DNA of 43,420 bases from Kagunavirus LM02P1. The stretch lies in sequence record OZ035819.1; one strand, written 5' to 3'. The position numbers were made by a program, and so were the translations under genes. The notes under the pieces are model-generated. The model searched no databases and had not been told where the DNA came from. It saw only the letters and a program-made list of their open reading frames with translations. Each line of letters starts with the position of its first letter. Within the stretch, counting starts at the first letter, position 1. This document shows positions 4,656 through 37,122 of this stretch, piece after piece.

Positions 4656-4675
4656 CTCCTGTTCAAGTTAACTGA

Positions 4676-26132: not shown

Positions 26133-26214
26133 AATACGCACTCCTCCCGTTTCGTATGCTCAATCCCACAGCGCGGACAGATTCGACAGTCTTCTTCATA
26201 GAACCAGTAAATTT

Positions 26215-28820: not shown

Positions 28821-29447
28821 TTAACGGCGGCGACGTTCGCGGCGCGGTGCGTCATCTTCTTCGTCGTCTTCCAGGTCATTGACGCTTGCAGCGACTTTAG
28901 AACCGCCAAACGCTTTACCTTCGCCGACGTATTTAATCGCCAACAGGTTAACTCCGAGGACTTTGTATTTCTGGCTGAACCAGATTTCTACGCTTACGTT
29001 AGCAACGCAGCCGCTGTAAACCTGTTCGCCTTCAATCTGTTCGCCGTCTACGTTGAAGTCCTGCTCTACCTGAGTCTCACCTTTTTTAGAGGTTACAATC
29101 AGTGGCTGTTTCTGTGCTTTCGCTTTGAAGTAGAAGCCTTCCGGGAAGTCTTCAAACGGATTGTCGCGCTCGGCAATGTCTTTAATAGCGCATTTATCCA
29201 TGTGCTTACCTTCGCCGTAGTTGGACTTCATCCATTTCTCGGCAGCAGCTGCGCCTAACGCCTCTTCAACTACAGCGTAAACCGTGTCGTAGAGTGCGTC
29301 GATTTGAGCATGGTCGGACGGCAGGATAATAGTTGCGCTGTACTGGCCTTTAGTGATTGAGCCATCATCGTTTTCACGGTCTTTTTCGCGTTCGAATACG
29401 TTAACCCAAGCAGTGTTTACTTTACGCAGATTTAATTTCAGTCCCAT
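28821..29447 (-). CDS. single-strand DNA-binding protein (DUF2815-like)
   Basis: 208 aa with acidic C-terminal tail DLEDDEEDD typical of SSB; own near-consensus promoter; adjacent to DUF2800-like nuclease. Confidence 0.55.
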   Translation of the reverse strand: MGLKLNLRKVNTAWVNVFEREKDRENDDGSITKGQYSATIILPSDHAQIDALYDTVYAVVEEALGAAAAEKWMKSNYGEGKHMDKCAIKDIAERDNPFEDFPEGFYFKAKAQKQPLIVTSKKGETQVEQDFNVDGEQIEGEQVYSGCVANVSVEIWFSQKYKVLGVNLLAIKYVGEGKAFGGSKVAASVNDLEDDEEDDAPRRERRRR

Positions 29448-29528: not shown

Positions 29529-29791
29529 CCCTTCCATCCAGTTATTTTCTCAACTATCAATACGTATTCGAAAGGCCACTCCAAATTCTGCACCCATTTA
29601 ATTTCCTTCGTCTGGTCCAGTTGCTCGGGGTCTACCGTTTCATACTTAATCGCAACGTAGACCGTTAGTGGAAGAAGGATAATTAGAAGCGGCACTAACA
29701 TTGCCCAGTAACAAACAAATGCCACAAACCCGCCAAATACCCTGAACGTTTTACGAATCATTTCAAATCCTCCTCTGTTACCCGATTCCAC
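29525..29791 (-). CDS. small membrane protein
   Basis: Hydrophobic segment FVAFVCYWAMLVPLLIILLPLTVYVAI; start uncertain (overlaps nuclease gene end). Confidence 0.35.
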   Translation of the reverse strand: MESGNRGGFEMIRKTFRVFGGFVAFVCYWAMLVPLLIILLPLTVYVAIKYETVDPEQLDQTKEIKWVQNLEWPFEYVLIVEKITGWKG

Positions 29792-30999
29792 TCAGGCCGT
29801 TTGTCGTCTGCCGTTGCAACGCATGGTGCGCCTGGCTTACGGGTGATGAAGTCTTTCAGTTCTTCTTCCGGTATTACTTTAACCGCTTCGGTAGGGGTCA
29901 TGAGCACTTCTTTAGTCAGCTTGTCGCCGTAGAGTTCTGCCACTTTCTCTGCGTCTTTCCACGCACGATTACCCGGCCTGCCTTCAACCAACTTGTACCC
30001 CGGCACTTTCTTACCGGAATGCAAAGCGGCGGCCATAGCTTTCTCAACCTTGTCGATGTGCTGGCGCAACAACGGCAACTTCTCATACTCAGATACGAGT
30101 TGCTCCGGCGTAAGTTCCAGTGCAAAGTCATCTTCCAGTTCTCCGGCCAGTACCGAATTAACGGTTTTTGTACGCGCGGCGCACTGTTCAGAGAACCGGC
30201 ACCACTGACAGCCATCGACCGACGGCCTGAAGTCCGACGCCTTCAGGTTCTTCTTACCGCGGAAATAGGCATCAAGAGCCAACAGCGCGCGTTTCTGGGC
30301 AAACTTAGCGAACAGCTCCAGCCCCTCAGCCGAGATGTCCCACTCCGACGCGCCACCCGCGTACGGCTGGAAGATAACCAGGCGAACTGTTGTTATGTGA
30401 TAACGTCTCTTGAGTCGGCGATAAACACCGAGAGCATAGAGCATAAGCTGTTTGTTTTCTTTCGCTTCGACACGATGCCGCCCTGTTTTAAGGTCGCCAA
30501 TAATTAGCATGTGCTCGTCTGTGTTCGCCAGCTCCTGGACGGCAACAAGGTCGGCGGTTCCGAATGTCTCGACGCCTTCGTAACCTGGATGCAGCACCTC
30601 AGTAAGATTGACGCGCATCTCCAGTTTTGCGTAAGTAGCCACGTCGATAATCGCTTTGCAGTAGTCGGTGTACTTTGTACACTGGTCAATCATGTCCGCC
30701 GTAATAAGTACCGCGCCTTTCATCGGACTGATTAGCGCCTTAATCTGGCCTTTACCCTCATCCAGTACATATGCACCTACTTCACGTGCTAACGGTAGCG
30801 CAGTTCCGCGGATATAGGCATTTAGGTGCACTTCTGCGATTGTATGACATGCGGTCCCTGTAACGGCAGCTTTACCCGATTCGTTAGGAATGTCTTTTTC
30901 ACACGCCAGTGATGCGGCACAGGTAAGCCACTTTTTAGCACCTGATGGCGACAGTAAGGCGTGCACATCGTTATTGCCGCCGCGTTCTTTTAAAATCAT
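29758..30999 (-). CDS. PD-(D/E)XK nuclease, DUF2800/Cas4-like
   Basis: 413 aa; N-terminal LSPSGAKKWLTCAAS motif as I recall for this family; sits between SSB and primase as in many phage replication modules. Confidence 0.55.
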   Translation of the reverse strand: MILKERGGNNDVHALLSPSGAKKWLTCAASLACEKDIPNESGKAAVTGTACHTIAEVHLNAYIRGTALPLAREVGAYVLDEGKGQIKALISPMKGAVLITADMIDQCTKYTDYCKAIIDVATYAKLEMRVNLTEVLHPGYEGVETFGTADLVAVQELANTDEHMLIIGDLKTGRHRVEAKENKQLMLYALGVYRRLKRRYHITTVRLVIFQPYAGGASEWDISAEGLELFAKFAQKRALLALDAYFRGKKNLKASDFRPSVDGCQWCRFSEQCAARTKTVNSVLAGELEDDFALELTPEQLVSEYEKLPLLRQHIDKVEKAMAAALHSGKKVPGYKLVEGRPGNRAWKDAEKVAELYGDKLTKEVLMTPTEAVKVIPEEELKDFITRKPGAPCVATADDKRPEWNRVTEEDLK

Positions 31000-31493
31000 T
31001 TCTCGGCTCCGTTAACTGTAAACCCGTATTTAATTTCGGCTTGCCTACGAGCCTTAGCCGCGTTCTCTAACCTATCGTAAGCACCTAAATAAATTGGCGC
31101 CCCATCTACATAAATTCTGGCGACCCACTTACCAGAGCGTTTATGAAACCCAACGCCTTTAACACCTGAAGCATTGTCAGTCCGTATTTTGGTGCCGTGG
31201 GCGATACTACCTCGTCGCATTTTTATAAGATTTTCTATTCTGTTATCAGTTCTATCTTTATTTGCGTGGCGAATTACTTCCCCTGGCGCTATCTCCCCAT
31301 TAAACATCTCCCAAACCACGTGGTGGATAAGTTTAGTAACCCCGTTAAAACGTAGTATTTTGAATTCACTTCCGTCGTTATCCACCCTCACACTCCCAGC
31401 TTCTTGGCCTATTTTTACCGATTTTGATGGTCTTATCTTCCAATACAATTTCCCTGTGACAGGGTCGTAGTCAAACAGTTCATGCCAATTCAT
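30996..31493 (-). CDS. HNH homing endonuclease with C-terminal AP2 DNA-binding domain
   Basis: HNH region HHVVWEMFNG...IRHANKDRTDNRIENL; AP2-like region GVKGVGFHKRSGKWVARIYVDG; ATG at 31493 with GGGAGG RBS; locally AT-rich by eye. Confidence 0.7.
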   Translation of the reverse strand: MNWHELFDYDPVTGKLYWKIRPSKSVKIGQEAGSVRVDNDGSEFKILRFNGVTKLIHHVVWEMFNGEIAPGEVIRHANKDRTDNRIENLIKMRRGSIAHGTKIRTDNASGVKGVGFHKRSGKWVARIYVDGAPIYLGAYDRLENAAKARRQAEIKYGFTVNGAEK

Positions 31494-31762
31494 ACCCTGA
31501 CCTCCCACTGGTCGATTAAATGCCGTGTCTTATGGTCACAATGCATCGCCCAGCTATACATCGACTCGAAGACATAAAAGTCACTTTTAACGAAAGTCGT
31601 GCGCTTAATCTGCGACAGGTGACGGCCTATATCTTTCGGCTTTGGTACTTTGCCTAAGAACGCCATCTCTTCCATCTGGTGCGCACCCGACGGCGCACGT
31701 AACAGCCACAACACCTCTGTGTTATCCCGGCGGTCGATGCCGCGGTAGAGTTGGTAAATCAT
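31490..31762 (-). CDS. hypothetical protein (90 aa)
   Basis: Stop overlaps HNH start (ATGA coupling). Confidence 0.4.
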   Translation of the reverse strand: MIYQLYRGIDRRDNTEVLWLLRAPSGAHQMEEMAFLGKVPKPKDIGRHLSQIKRTTFVKSDFYVFESMYSWAMHCDHKTRHLIDQWEVRV

Positions 31763-31804
31763 ATTCCGGCCCTCTGTTAAAGCGGCCCGAAGGCCGCAGG
31801 TAAA

Positions 31805-32317
31805 TTATTCTTCTTCGAAATACTTGTTCTTAATCGCCGTCAGACGTTCCAGGTATTCAGCCAGGTCTTCGTCTTTAATCGCGGCAATCTTCATCTTCTT
31901 GCCGGTGAACTCTTCCAGCAGTTCATCGGAATCGTCACACGCGGCATCGCTCGGACCCTCGTTAATCGCATCGTCGATAGCCTGAATCTGGTCGCGCAGA
32001 GACTGGTAATCGACTTCTTCCGGCTCTGGCGTCGGCGCATCTACAGGTTTAGGGGCTGGTTTTGATTTGCCAGGCTTGCGTTTAGGCTTTTCTTCTTCTG
32101 CCGGTTTAGTGTCAACGAGGTCTTCACCTTCAACCGGGATTTCTTTCCCGATGCCAGTGCCTGGGTCGACTTCAAGCACCTCTCCAGTAACCGATACATC
32201 TACAAGCATTTCACCTACATGCTCAGTTGGCGGCACCGGTCGTTTCGCGCTATTCGCAGCAATCAGTTCATGCGCAACTACGAAACGTTCCAGTAATTTT
32301 AAAAATTGGTCTAACAT
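31805..32317 (-). CDS. acidic hypothetical protein (170 aa)
   Basis: ATG at 32317; Pro/Lys-rich linker and strongly acidic C-terminal half; preceded by conserved leader and promoter. Confidence 0.45.
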   Translation of the reverse strand: MLDQFLKLLERFVVAHELIAANSAKRPVPPTEHVGEMLVDVSVTGEVLEVDPGTGIGKEIPVEGEDLVDTKPAEEEKPKRKPGKSKPAPKPVDAPTPEPEEVDYQSLRDQIQAIDDAINEGPSDAACDDSDELLEEFTGKKMKIAAIKDEDLAEYLERLTAIKNKYFEEE

Positions 32318-32348
32318 TTGTTTCTCTCCTCTCGTTTGGTATGGGCTA

Positions 32349-32378
32349 ACTATAATAGCTAACTATTCATGATGTCAA
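32349..32378 (-). promoter_or_regulatory. sigma70-type promoter TTGACA-N18-TATAGT for 31805..32317
   Basis: Read on minus strand; leader 32318-32348 shares 15-nt AAACGAGAGGAGAGA with the leader at 37094-37122. Confidence 0.5.
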
Positions 32379-32442
32379 TGGGCTTTTCTAAAATAATTAA
32401 TATGGTACTATTCACATATCAACTAACTAAGGAGTAATTGAC

Positions 32443-32658
32443 ATGCAACCATCTGAACTAGGCATCCGTGTAGAGCAACGCCGCAAAGAACTCGGCATCT
32501 CCCAGCGCCGTCTGGCTGTCCTGGCCGGTGTTTCTCAGGGAGCGATTAACCAGCTGGCACTTGGAGTAACTCAGGACGTCCGACCGGCGACGCTGTTTAA
32601 ACTGGCGGAAGTGCTGGAAGTAGACGCCAAGTGGCTGGCGTTCGGTGAAGGGGCTTAA
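32443..32658 (+). CDS. XRE-family helix-turn-helix transcriptional regulator
   Basis: 71 aa; HTH LGISQRRLAVLAGVSQGAINQLALG; RBS AAGGAG; only + strand gene inside the - strand replication module. Confidence 0.7.
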   Translation: MQPSELGIRVEQRRKELGISQRRLAVLAGVSQGAINQLALGVTQDVRPATLFKLAEVLEVDAKWLAFGEGA

Positions 32659-32673
32659 CGCCCCTTTCTTTTT
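32648..32673. terminator. bidirectional intrinsic terminator
   Basis: Hairpin AGGGGC-ttaac-GCCCCT followed by TTCTTTTT; overlaps XRE stop; primase stop at 32676. Confidence 0.6.
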
Positions 32674-32675
32674 AT

Positions 32676-34943
32676 CTATTCCAAATCTTCCTCTGTCACT
32701 GTCAGCATTTCATTCGGTTCGTATATTGTCTTCGGAATCTTGTTATCCGTTATTCGGGTGTTCAGCCTGTAACGGCCTGGAATTATCTGATTGTTTTCGT
32801 CGGTCCCTGGCACAAGATAACCCGCCTCAACCATTTTCTTAATCTTCCCACGTTCTATGGCTTCTTTGGAGTTAAACGCCTTTGCGTTAGGGTCGGACTG
32901 TGCGAGCTTATTTGCCGCAGCTACTGTGATACCTTCGTTGCCATTGTAGGTTCCTTCCGCCAGTTCAAACGCCGCCAGTATCGTGGCCTCCGAACTGTTG
33001 ACGGCGTTCTCTACGGTTTTACGTACGTTTTCTTTACCTTCCTTTGTCAGCCCTTCTTCCCGCTCTTTCTCCTCATCGGTCTTGAATGGCTCGAATCCCC
33101 AAGGCATCAATACAAGCGCCTTGTGCGGTTCAGGCAGGTCGAGGTTTACGATTGTGCCGTATTCCTCGGTGGAACCGAGGAACTCAACCGCGCGGTACTC
33201 TTTCGGCGGAGGTGCTTCACGGAACTGTACCGACTCCAGCACCATGCCAACCGTCTTCTGTTGGGGGCCGTGCTTAAATTTCGAGTGGTATACGTTTATC
33301 TGACGGTCGGTTGCACGTTCGATTGTCAGTTCCACGTCGACACCCGCATACAGCGCCCCGCTGCCACGGGCTTTCTTTCCGCCCTTCGGGGTATGGTGGA
33401 CAACGCCTACCGCAGCTTTAGTCGCGTCGCGTACTTCTTTCAGGATGGCGATAACTTTACCCATACCGATCGCCGTTGATGAACTGTTCTCGTCGAACTT
33501 ATCAATCGTCAGGGCCAGCGTCTGGTTGAGTGTGTCGAACGCAACCATACCAATTGGCTCGTCGCCTGCAGTTTCGCGCATCAACTTAATCAGGTTTTTC
33601 AGTTTGCCGACTTCGCCCATGTCGATGACATGTACGTAATCTTTACCTTCCTCGCCATATTTAGCGGCTAGTGCATCAATACGGGTGCGTGTAGCGGCAC
33701 CGCCCTCGCCATCGATATAGAAATGGTGGCAACGCTGGGTATCCGCCCCCGCAAACCGGTATCCGGCGGCGCTGAGGTACATCATCCCCAGCGTATAGAA
33801 CGATTTGTACGTACCTGATTCCCCGACAATATCCCAGATACAATCTGACGGCATGTACCCTTCAACGACGAAATCCGCCTTTACTGGTTCTGGTAGCTCG
33901 TCCTCCTCTGAGTCATCATTGTCTTCCAGGTCGTCGAGGCTGCATGAAACTGATTCACGCGCACCCCAGCCGATAGCCTCTGCGACTTCACTGAATGGCA
34001 GCCCTGTAGCGTCACACGCATACTTCCACACCTCTTTCGGCGACATGCCCTCGGTTGCCGTGATGTCGGTGTCGTGAATCATGGTTACGTTAGGCGCTTC
34101 GTATCCCTCGCGCGGGAAGCACAACAGGAAGTCGTCCGGGCGTGGAGTCGGGTCGCTATAGTTTTCGGCGTGTTCTGGTGTGGCGGGCATCTTAAGGCCG
34201 CGTGGCGTCAAGATGCCGCCGTGCTCGAAGGCCAGTGCTTCAAACGCATCGGTAAACGCAGTGCGCAGTTCTTCCGGTATCTGGTAATCCGATGCGCTGC
34301 TCACCTCGTAATCCGGGATGCCTTCCAGTAACTCGCCGGGGTCAATCAGGTCATTGCGGCGCGACCAGATAACCTGAGAGCCAACCGGCGGCAGGTACAT
34401 CGGCTGGGACAGAGTAAACCCGCTGCGGTCCGCGCCCATGCCTTTGAAGAAGTGCTCCAGCAACCCGTGACGTACGCGGATGATGTCACCGCCTTCGACC
34501 GGGCGGGCCAGCGGCATGACGACGCGAAAGCGTGGAGACTCATCGGTATGGGATGCCGTGGTGTAAACGCACATGGCTTTACGGCCTCGCTTAACCAGGC
34601 GCACTGCTTCCTGGTACTCTTCCGGCGTTGCGCTGTCGAAGTCAAGATACGCCAGTGACGATTTGGTTACAGACGCGTCACAGCGATAGAAGAAGCCTTT
34701 ACGCGCATGCTTAAAGTCACCTGTTTCCGGGTCTTTTACGGTGCTGTGCGTTGAGTCGCACGCGGCAGTGATATACCCCGGCGCTGTCTTAGGGTTAATC
34801 CCGTCATGAACAGCATCAAGCGGCTGGATTAACTCTTTCAGGTCGTCCAGTGTTGCCGTATGTGTGGTTCTGACGTTTATATCCTTTTTCTCCGCCCGCG
34901 CGTTGCGACGGGACCACGAGTAGGATAAAATTACATCGGACAT
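32676..34943 (-). CDS. bifunctional primase-polymerase (AEP) / P-loop helicase
   Basis: 755 aa; AEP motifs AYLDFD and TTASHTDESPRFRVVMP; C-terminal Walker A GESGTYKS, Walker B-like MVAFD. Confidence 0.75.
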   Translation of the reverse strand: MSDVILSYSWSRRNARAEKKDINVRTTHTATLDDLKELIQPLDAVHDGINPKTAPGYITAACDSTHSTVKDPETGDFKHARKGFFYRCDASVTKSSLAYLDFDSATPEEYQEAVRLVKRGRKAMCVYTTASHTDESPRFRVVMPLARPVEGGDIIRVRHGLLEHFFKGMGADRSGFTLSQPMYLPPVGSQVIWSRRNDLIDPGELLEGIPDYEVSSASDYQIPEELRTAFTDAFEALAFEHGGILTPRGLKMPATPEHAENYSDPTPRPDDFLLCFPREGYEAPNVTMIHDTDITATEGMSPKEVWKYACDATGLPFSEVAEAIGWGARESVSCSLDDLEDNDDSEEDELPEPVKADFVVEGYMPSDCIWDIVGESGTYKSFYTLGMMYLSAAGYRFAGADTQRCHHFYIDGEGGAATRTRIDALAAKYGEEGKDYVHVIDMGEVGKLKNLIKLMRETAGDEPIGMVAFDTLNQTLALTIDKFDENSSSTAIGMGKVIAILKEVRDATKAAVGVVHHTPKGGKKARGSGALYAGVDVELTIERATDRQINVYHSKFKHGPQQKTVGMVLESVQFREAPPPKEYRAVEFLGSTEEYGTIVNLDLPEPHKALVLMPWGFEPFKTDEEKEREEGLTKEGKENVRKTVENAVNSSEATILAAFELAEGTYNGNEGITVAAANKLAQSDPNAKAFNSKEAIERGKIKKMVEAGYLVPGTDENNQIIPGRYRLNTRITDNKIPKTIYEPNEMLTVTEEDLE

Positions 34944-35868: not shown

Positions 35869-35897
35869 TTGCACGCCCCAACATAATAGGATACTAT
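35869..35897 (+). promoter_or_regulatory. sigma70-type early promoter TTGCAC-N17-TACTAT
   Basis: Same architecture as 37065-37093, 4676-4704 and 13908-13936; followed by conserved leader TTATCGAAACGAGA. Confidence 0.55.
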
Positions 35898-37093: not shown

Positions 37094-37122
37094 TCAGTTA
37101 TCGAAACGAGAGGAGAGAGAAG

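Follow-up and report, generated by a model that had tools for sequence, protein, structure and literature searches.

The window analyzed here, the 43,420 nucleotides of Kagunavirus LM02P1 (OZ035819.1), has the organization of a siphophage of about 43 kb that is Kagunavirus-like and falls within the Guernseyvirinae. On its minus strand, at 31805-32317, it carries a gene for an acidic protein of 170 aa. We found that this gene behaves as a core gene and stands as the invariant first gene of a cassette in Guernseyvirinae and Dhillonvirus. An earlier description of the locus, made from the nucleotide sequence by itself (the original prediction), had overlooked this position-locked membership of the module formed by an exonuclease, a protein that binds single-stranded DNA (SSB), PolA and a helicase-primase, and it is the strongest evidence on the protein's role. 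This affiliation, which holds for several groups of phages, makes the gene a position-locked part of the module's core and points to a function in replication or recombination rather than to the free-standing regulator that had been suggested. We tentatively favor, with a probability of about 40%, the interpretation that the 170-aa protein serves the module as a tethered adaptor or regulator, abundant and without catalytic activity.

The first gene of the exonuclease cassette

Reading leftward through the window, the 170-aa gene is followed by ORF90, an HNH/AP2 endonuclease gene and the gene for a DUF2800 exonuclease; a second promoter of the same type then precedes the genes for a Gp2.5-like SSB/annealase and PolA. 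On the other side lies a divergent gene for a 71-aa helix-turn-helix (HTH) protein, and the helicase-primase gene is found just past it. Synteny was assessed in the window, in K1H, EC3-1, ST1, phiEap-2, VSiP and PhiSTP1, in the metagenomic loci L007, L009, L012 and L010, and in the Dhillonviruses YD-2008.s and HK578. At every one of the 12 loci examined, where the flanking sequence was long enough, the homologue is located upstream of the DUF2800 exonuclease, either directly (as in ST1, where the two genes immediately adjoin) or separated from it by 1-4 small open reading frames (ORFs). Beyond the exonuclease the usual order is SSB, then PolA, with a divergent helicase-primase operon. The arrangement extends to metagenomic homologues that are 23-32% identical, where the identity of the exonucleases was confirmed by blastp: the order is HTH, homologue, ORF90-like, DUF2800, Enc34-type SSB, Nmad5 and PolA in L007, homologue, DUF2800 and PolA in L009, and homologue and DUF2800 in L012.

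The family is universal in Guernseyvirinae and Dhillonvirus. A tblastn search detected the 170-aa protein in 484 phage records, with coverage reaching 80% or more in 478; the exonuclease was present at no less than 60% identity in 447 phage records, and ORF90 in only 200, many Jerseyviruses (ST1 among them) having no ORF90. Dhillonvirus was not picked up by tblastn; EpYD_56, a 170-aa protein encoded at the same position in YD-2008.s, fits the family profile at 99.9% probability, and HK578_044 is another member.

The same first-gene status probably applies to the Chi-like phages. In these Casjensviridae, a phrog_7721 protein (for example, BP12C_72 or KPNN53_012) takes the place of the 170-aa protein, with the regulator/primase operon on one side and the DUF2800 exonuclease on the other. 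It has the same architecture as the 170-aa protein: an N-terminal helix, a Lys-rich linker, and a C-terminal domain that is helical, contains an FGxxK-like motif and has an acidic tail. The direct comparison of the PHROG 3127 profile with the Chi-like analogue by hhalign was not significant (probability 0.4%), so that the link comes only from bridging PHROG matches, the weakest members of the family matching both phrog_3127 and phrog_7721, phrog_408 or phrog_18562. These profile matches suggest a wider superfamily, uncharacterized throughout. The label "putative RecT protein" attached to the Chi-like analogue looks spurious.

Family membership and predicted architecture

The reading frame called in the original prediction, with its ATG start, is real: the N-terminus is kept while its codons vary synonymously. 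Homologues whose overall identity is 35-90% keep the first 23 residues almost unchanged, and 4-10 of about 20 identical codons differ synonymously. The N-terminal helix is thus under purifying selection at the protein level. Over its full length the protein matches the profile of PHROG 3127, a family listed as of unknown function (E 1.5e-62; residues 1-170 against positions 1-177 of 178), as do all 27 diverse homologues tested. Related clusters number about 2,400-2,700 at 90% identity and only 56 at 50% identity, the latter among 1.84 billion representatives, and the family is therefore narrow in sequence space. Scans of the protein against Pfam (E up to 1), NCBIfam and PADLOC (E up to 1) found no family, in keeping with the earlier claim that it has no catalytic motif, and homology searches brought up no clear relationship to a known replication accessory protein. 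A sequence profile search of the PDB gave chance matches only (E 0.28 or worse), fold searches yielded either generic three-helix bundles or the protein's own uncharacterized relatives, and Pfam scans of the 27 homologues returned low-complexity noise only (GET2, PARP, Sigma70_ner).

Named members of PHROG 3127 include the "13.88 kDa late protein" of the Salmonella phage MB78 (UniProt Q9T1Z8), Gp46 of the Edwardsiella phage eiAU, gp44 of HK578 and gp46 of the Sodalis phage SO-1. Profile matches and BFVD indicate that the members are true homologues sharing both architecture and genomic position. The MB78 entry is 123 aa long, compared with about 170 aa in its relatives; it is evidently the source of the "late protein" label that has propagated through many GenBank records. 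In the records of relatives (L002, L006, L019 and L021), the name "13.88 kDa late protein" for this family looks spurious. The weakest member, P0295, is encoded on a short metagenomic contig (L011, 473-889) directly downstream of a gene matching the anti-Thoeris protein Tad3 (PF25185).

In composition, the protein is strongly acidic, with an isoelectric point of 4.44, 41 Asp and Glu against 21 Lys and Arg, and a net charge of about -20. An AlphaFold2 model built on an alignment of 40 sequences predicts three parts. The N-terminal helix spans residues 2-23 at a predicted local distance difference test score (pLDDT) of about 73. Residues 26-94, a Pro/Lys/Glu linker, are disordered in the model (pLDDT below 50); this part is acidic at residues 31-70 and contains 9 Pro and 8 Lys/Arg within residues 71-100. 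Three helices (104-120, 124-138 and 149-167; pLDDT 80-91) make up a C-terminal acidic bundle, and residues 101-170 include 21 Asp and Glu against 8 Lys and Arg (net -13). The helical N-terminus, the Pro/Lys-rich linker and the strongly acidic C-terminal half of the original prediction are all borne out. The model consists of helix and disorder throughout, with no beta structure, and an OB-fold beta-barrel is not predicted. As modeled, the combination of a helix, a disordered tether and a small helical domain is typical of adaptors.

Conservation follows these divisions. The N-terminal helix has the consensus MLxxFLxLLERFVVAHELIAANS and is nearly invariant in Guernseyvirinae; its polar residues E10, R11, H16, E17, N22 and S23 are invariant, and R11, A15, E17 and A20 are retained in at least 90% of the distant homologues. 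The linker is a variable polyampholyte with a semi-conserved motif, PVEGEDxxDTKP, and with an EEKPKRKP patch that is invariant or nearly so in Guernseyvirinae; distant members have Lys/Arg blocks at this place, such as KPKRGRKP or KKPGRPKK. The C-terminal pattern of the family is [YFW][YF][DE]x[DE]. In some homologues (P0121, P0124, P0166, P0186, P0212 and P0236; 213-230 aa), the C-terminal helical module of about 55-60 residues is duplicated in tandem, and this duplication identifies the module as an independent domain.

Control elements and neighboring genes

The near-consensus promoter previously assigned to the gene holds up, matching the sigma-70 consensus at 11 of 12 positions. Sites of the form TTGACA-N16-19-TATART occur twice in the whole window, where 0.03 would be expected, and promoter-like sites hold the same position in K1H, ST1, YD-2008.s, L009 and L013. 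The "conserved leader" described along with the promoter stood in part. Its 14-mer AAACGAGAGGAGAG, which contains the ribosome-binding site, recurs exactly once elsewhere (37104-37117, plus strand), behind another, rightward promoter, and a copy with 2 mismatches is found at 26139, giving 3 matches in total against 0.25 expected. The 22-mer extension occurs only once in the window, and the leader is accordingly shared in part only.

The spacer of the promoter holds a 14-bp palindrome, AATAGCTAACTATT (Table 1). The form AATAG-N4-CTATT is present in 8 copies in the window, each of 14 bp and starting at 4675, 13907, 25707, 29505, 32354, 35885, 36765 and 37081; a search allowing N3-6 gave 9 matches against 0.17 expected. 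Seven of the eight N4 copies have promoter-like surroundings, which fall into two stereotyped types. In the first, leftward type, TTGACA...AATAGnnnnCTATTATAGT, three promoters (25707, 29505 and 32354) stand ahead of replication genes. The second type, TTGCAC...ATAATAGnnTACTATTCA, comprises the four promoters at 4675 and 13907 (minus strand) and at 35885 and 37081 (plus strand) and takes the form TTGCAC[A/G]CCCCAAyATAATAGnnTACTATTCA. The palindrome is probably an operator or the core of a phage-specific promoter, and the neighboring 71-aa HTH protein is a plausible candidate for its binder. A degenerate half-copy of the palindrome, TAATATGGTACTATTCA, is found on the plus strand upstream of the HTH gene (32398-32414), with a -10-like TACTAT hexamer and a poor -35; it may be an autoregulated promoter of that gene. 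In the Dhillonviruses, the labels "DNA recombination nuclease inhibitor gamma" and "transposase" given to the HTH/sigma-r4-like gene look spurious.

The hairpin behind the stop codon is probably an attenuator or an RNA-stabilizing element. In K1H, EC3-1, ST1, L007, YD-2008.s, L009 and L012, the homologue is trailed by a hairpin or by a canonical intrinsic terminator. An Rfam scan of 31000-33000 gave no match. Because the gene has its own promoter and, in several lineages, a 3' hairpin or terminator, we infer that it would be strongly expressed and semi-autonomous, heading the operon.

Table 1. Features of the 170-aa gene and of its surroundings, in window coordinates
Feature	Position	Strand	Details
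Sigma-70-type promoter	32349..32378	-	-35 TTGACA at 32378-32373, 18-nt spacer, -10 TATAGT at 32354-32349
14-bp palindrome AATAGCTAACTATT	32354..32367	.	In the promoter spacer; overlaps first base of the -10
Leader with Shine-Dalgarno region	32318..32348	-	14-mer AAACGAGAGGAGAG at 32324-32337
Coding sequence, acidic 170-aa protein (PHROG 3127)	31805..32317	-	ATG start; stop codon included
Amphipathic N-terminal helix MLDQFLKLLERFVVAHELIAANS	32243..32317	-	Residues 1-25; alignments and AlphaFold2
Disordered Pro/Lys/Glu linker, variable length	32018..32242	-	Residues 26-100; pLDDT below 50, indels, composition
Basic patch EEKPKRKP	32072..32095	-	Residues 75-82; alignments
Acidic three-helix bundle, ending KYFEEE	31808..32017	-	Residues 101-170; AlphaFold2 and alignments
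Hairpin GCGGCC-UUCG-GGCCGC	31782..31797	-	7 nt past the stop codon, then UUUAAC; -13.9 kcal/mol, z-score -2.2
ORF90, phrog_4965 (function unknown)	31490..31762	-	Homologue of HK578 gp43 (blastp E 2e-7)
HNH/AP2-type homing endonuclease	30996..31508	-	Inserted between ORF90 and exonuclease
DUF2800 / Cas4-like PD-(D/E)XK exonuclease	29758..30999	-	Invariant downstream neighbor of the family
Gp2.5-like SSB/annealase	28821..29447	-	Separate gene in the module
HTH regulator (DicA/Cro-like), 71 aa	32443..32658	+	Divergent; candidate palindrome binder

Two of the neighbors call for comment. The homing endonuclease gene overlaps the genes on both sides by a few bases, the stretch is covered in only 3 phage records, and the gene is missing from most Kagunaviruses and relatives (K1H, for instance). 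As to ORF90, the label "phosphoheptose isomerase" on its EC3-1 homologue looks spurious.

The adaptor interpretation and its alternatives

What is established here is the reading frame with its purifying selection, the match to a promoter consensus, the distribution among phages, the synteny and, as a prediction, the architecture; on this basis one can picture how an adaptor of the module might work. The gene would be expressed early, and its product, to judge from the promoter and the hairpin, would be made in excess over the enzymes encoded downstream. The N-terminal helix would anchor the protein to a phage partner or drive its oligomerization, the roughly 70-residue linker would serve as a tether, and the acidic bundle and tail would cover a basic surface with which a component of the module binds DNA or tails. 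In so doing, the protein would organize or gate the exonuclease/annealase/polymerase machinery at phage DNA ends. This adaptor interpretation fits the architecture, the status of the gene as a core gene in a fixed position, and the indications of stoichiometric expression. Stoichiometric rather than catalytic amounts are suggested by the gene's own promoter and by the hairpin or terminator seen in several lineages. As for the anchor, the Guernseyvirinae, which have E. coli, Salmonella, Enterobacter and Serratia among their hosts, possess a nearly invariant helix; in Dhillonvirus, whose host is E. coli, it differs at 13 of 23 positions. Because the helix diverges between phages sharing this host, a co-diverging phage partner or self-association is favored over a host target.

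The C-terminal tails of the module proteins bear on the same question. In T7, gp2.5 and gp4 dock on the polymerase by way of their acidic C-terminal tails, that of gp2.5 being purely acidic and ending in an aromatic residue. In the window, the exonuclease ends in VTEEDLK (29758-29781) and the helicase-primase in VTEEDLE (32676-32699); a T[DE][DE]DL[KE] motif terminates both proteins in Kagunavirus, phiEap-2, VSiP, Cornellvirus and Dhillonvirus (HK578). The ending [DE]4V is common to three proteins of Chi-like phages, namely the exonuclease, the SSB and the analogue found at the position of the 170-aa protein. The presence of similar acidic tails on several proteins of one replication module parallels the T7 pair, and these lineage-specific tails suggest, by analogy, a docking peptide shared by the module proteins and with it a tail-based docking network like that of T7. 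At the C-terminus of the window's Gp2.5-like SSB, a run of acidic residues gives way to a basic tail (DLEDDEEDDAPRRERRRR), and its homologues in Guernseyvirinae and Dhillonvirus have RPRRRRR-like basic tails. By the same analogy, an electrostatic network of contacts between tails and patches is plausible, and the 170-aa protein could take part in it. Its layout (a folded part, a long disordered linker and an acidic C-terminus containing aromatic residues) is that of E. coli SSB and recalls the T7 gp2.5 and gp4 tails. Unlike E. coli SSB and T7 gp2.5, the 170-aa protein has no predicted OB fold and no sequence similarity to them, and no SSB family of Pfam or PHROG matches it.

Several considerations weigh against an adaptor. 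The argument rests on gene neighborhood and architecture; the acidic bundle would suit a host-directed DNA mimic equally well, and having its own promoter and terminator would likewise be in keeping with a gene for early host takeover. Furthermore, the tail of the protein (YFEEE) is devoid of the DL motif that is common to the exonuclease and the helicase-primase in Guernseyvirinae and Dhillonvirus. It is tempting to go further and to regard the 170-aa protein as defining a widespread, uncharacterized class, the missing mediator of the module, a helix-anchored, tethered acidic DNA-mimic domain that gates nuclease, annealase and polymerase, and possibly host RecBCD, at phage DNA ends; in this full form, the proposal is unlikely to be correct.

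A protein directed at the host is likewise a doubtful prospect, although it is the main alternative. A nucleic-acid mimic was the other role suggested in the original prediction; homology searches linked the protein to no known mimic or regulator. The tethered acidic bundle would in this case block a host DNA-binding enzyme, most plausibly RecBCD, as lambda Gam and T7 gp5.9 do, and shield linear ends for the phage exonuclease and annealase. Like these two inhibitors, the 170-aa protein is small, acidic and non-enzymatic and is encoded beside a phage exonuclease, the positional precedents being the gam-bet-exo order in lambda and T7 gene 5.9 beside the gene 6 exonuclease. The charge density of its C-terminal domain (-0.19 per residue) is comparable to theirs or higher (-0.15 for T7 gp5.9 and -0.06 for lambda Gam), and the strong promoter of its own would suit a mimic. 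Unlike them, it carries an anchor helix at its N-terminus and a tether about 70 residues long, and no sequence relationship could be found: hhalign probabilities were 0.27% for lambda Gam and 0.11% for T7 gp5.9, and there was no Pfam match to Gam (at E up to 1) or Abc, so that membership of the lambda Gam family and a Gp5.9-like inhibitor recognizable by sequence or profile were both rejected. The documented sensitivity of Kagunavirus and Dhillonvirus to P2 OLD (PMC11990801; bioRxiv 10.64898/2026.07.10.737580) speaks for a RecBCD inhibitor, as expression of such inhibitors triggers OLD (bioRxiv 10.64898/2026.07.10.737580). However, the genetics of HK578 point to a neighboring gene. The reported OLD escapers of this phage affect gp43 (a single-nucleotide deletion causing a frameshift), the helicase-primase gp46, and a promoter (the gp45-46 promoter deletion), with the reservation that there are only three of them and that the promoter deletion falls in a region also holding the gp44 promoters (bioRxiv 10.64898/2026.07.10.737580). 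They miss gp44, the homologue of the 170-aa protein; gp43 (GenBank numbering) is the homologue of ORF90, and because the escaper mutation hits gp43 rather than gp44, the mimic is weakened, and a protein that manipulates DNA ends or RecBCD is better sought in the neighboring gene. The difference in the N-terminal helix between Kagunavirus and Dhillonvirus despite their common E. coli host, and the core, position-locked distribution of the gene, where anti-host genes are usually patchy, also argue against a host target. An anti-restriction mimic of the Ocr/ArdA type was rejected: there was no Pfam match, and an Ocr-like role is unlikely because Kagunavirus isolates are reported to be highly sensitive to restriction-modification systems (PMC11990801).

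Lower still in our estimation stand two alternatives. The protein could be the partner of a transcription factor (an anti-repressor, a co-activator or a sigma-appropriator) that works with the divergent HTH protein on the palindrome promoters, which we consider improbable. The 125-bp divergent control region is common to the 170-aa and HTH genes, the eight promoter-associated palindromes suggest a phage-wide transcription program, and an acidic three-helix bundle on a linker recalls region 1.1 of sigma-70. Yet adjacency to an HTH gene is not kept in L009 or L012, where adjacency to the exonuclease is, and this weakens the case; nor did Pfam and NCBIfam reveal any DNA-binding, HTH or sigma-like domain, the few Sigma70_ner matches among the homologues being the low-complexity noise mentioned above. 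Alternatively, the protein might organize replication on DNA or at the membrane in the manner of phi29 p16.7, with the helix binding the membrane or oligomerizing and the basic blocks of the linker binding DNA near the origin. The amphipathic character of the helix would agree with this, as would the Lys/Arg/Pro/Ala-rich blocks in the linkers of homologues, which resemble histone H1 or AT-hooks (the two blocks given above, and AKKAPAKGKGKK), and the location of the gene, which abuts the divergent control region where the HK578 OLD escapers implicate replication initiation. The invariance of the polar helix residues favors a specific protein interface, however, the protein is strongly acidic overall, and a search of the 125-bp intergenic region for origin repeats found none beyond the promoter palindromes. 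Such an organizer appears very improbable.

Returning to an adaptor of the module, a comparison may be drawn with the three-helix C-terminal domain of lambda Red-beta (PDB 6m9k and 8tfu), which binds lambda Exo and the SSB tail. In sequence, hhalign found no similarity to this exonuclease-binding Red-beta/RecT domain (probability 0.3%). Two candidate identities were discarded as being different genes, namely Ksap1 (74 aa), which activates KpAvs2, and the Dhillonvirus anti-Tmn protein. Most plausibly, the protein is a sequence-unrelated variant of a non-enzymatic replisome/recombination adaptor or mimic. PHROG 3127 already lists the gene product as a hypothetical protein, and its existence is therefore not new. 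What is apparently absent from the records found is the three-part architecture, the cassette-first status, the framing by promoter and hairpin, and the separation from the OLD-escape gene.

The combination of duf2800, gp2.5 and polA is a recognized conserved module and, in tailed phages, one of the most frequent cassettes for replication and recombination (PMC8093625). Bacterial defenses sense the SSB and the polymerase of the module, as do retron Eco8 and Borvo in Dhillonviruses (bioRxiv 10.1101/2022.08.27.505566). The present findings place a conserved, probably abundant, non-enzymatic protein at the head of this cassette in several hundred sequenced phages of Salmonella and E. coli, including many therapy candidates and BASEL model phages. 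They expose a gap in the understanding of phage replication and recombination and of their interplay with immunity linked to RecBCD, for instance OLD. The gene is present in model phages that can be engineered, among them HK578 and the Dhillonvirus and Kagunavirus isolates of the BASEL collection. Should the 170-aa protein turn out to be merely a dispensable accessory, the result would be an ordinary one. If instead the protein is the mediator of the module, replisome-hub and Gam-like functions would be united in one protein, common to Guernseyvirinae, Dhillonvirus and, distantly, the Chi-like phages.

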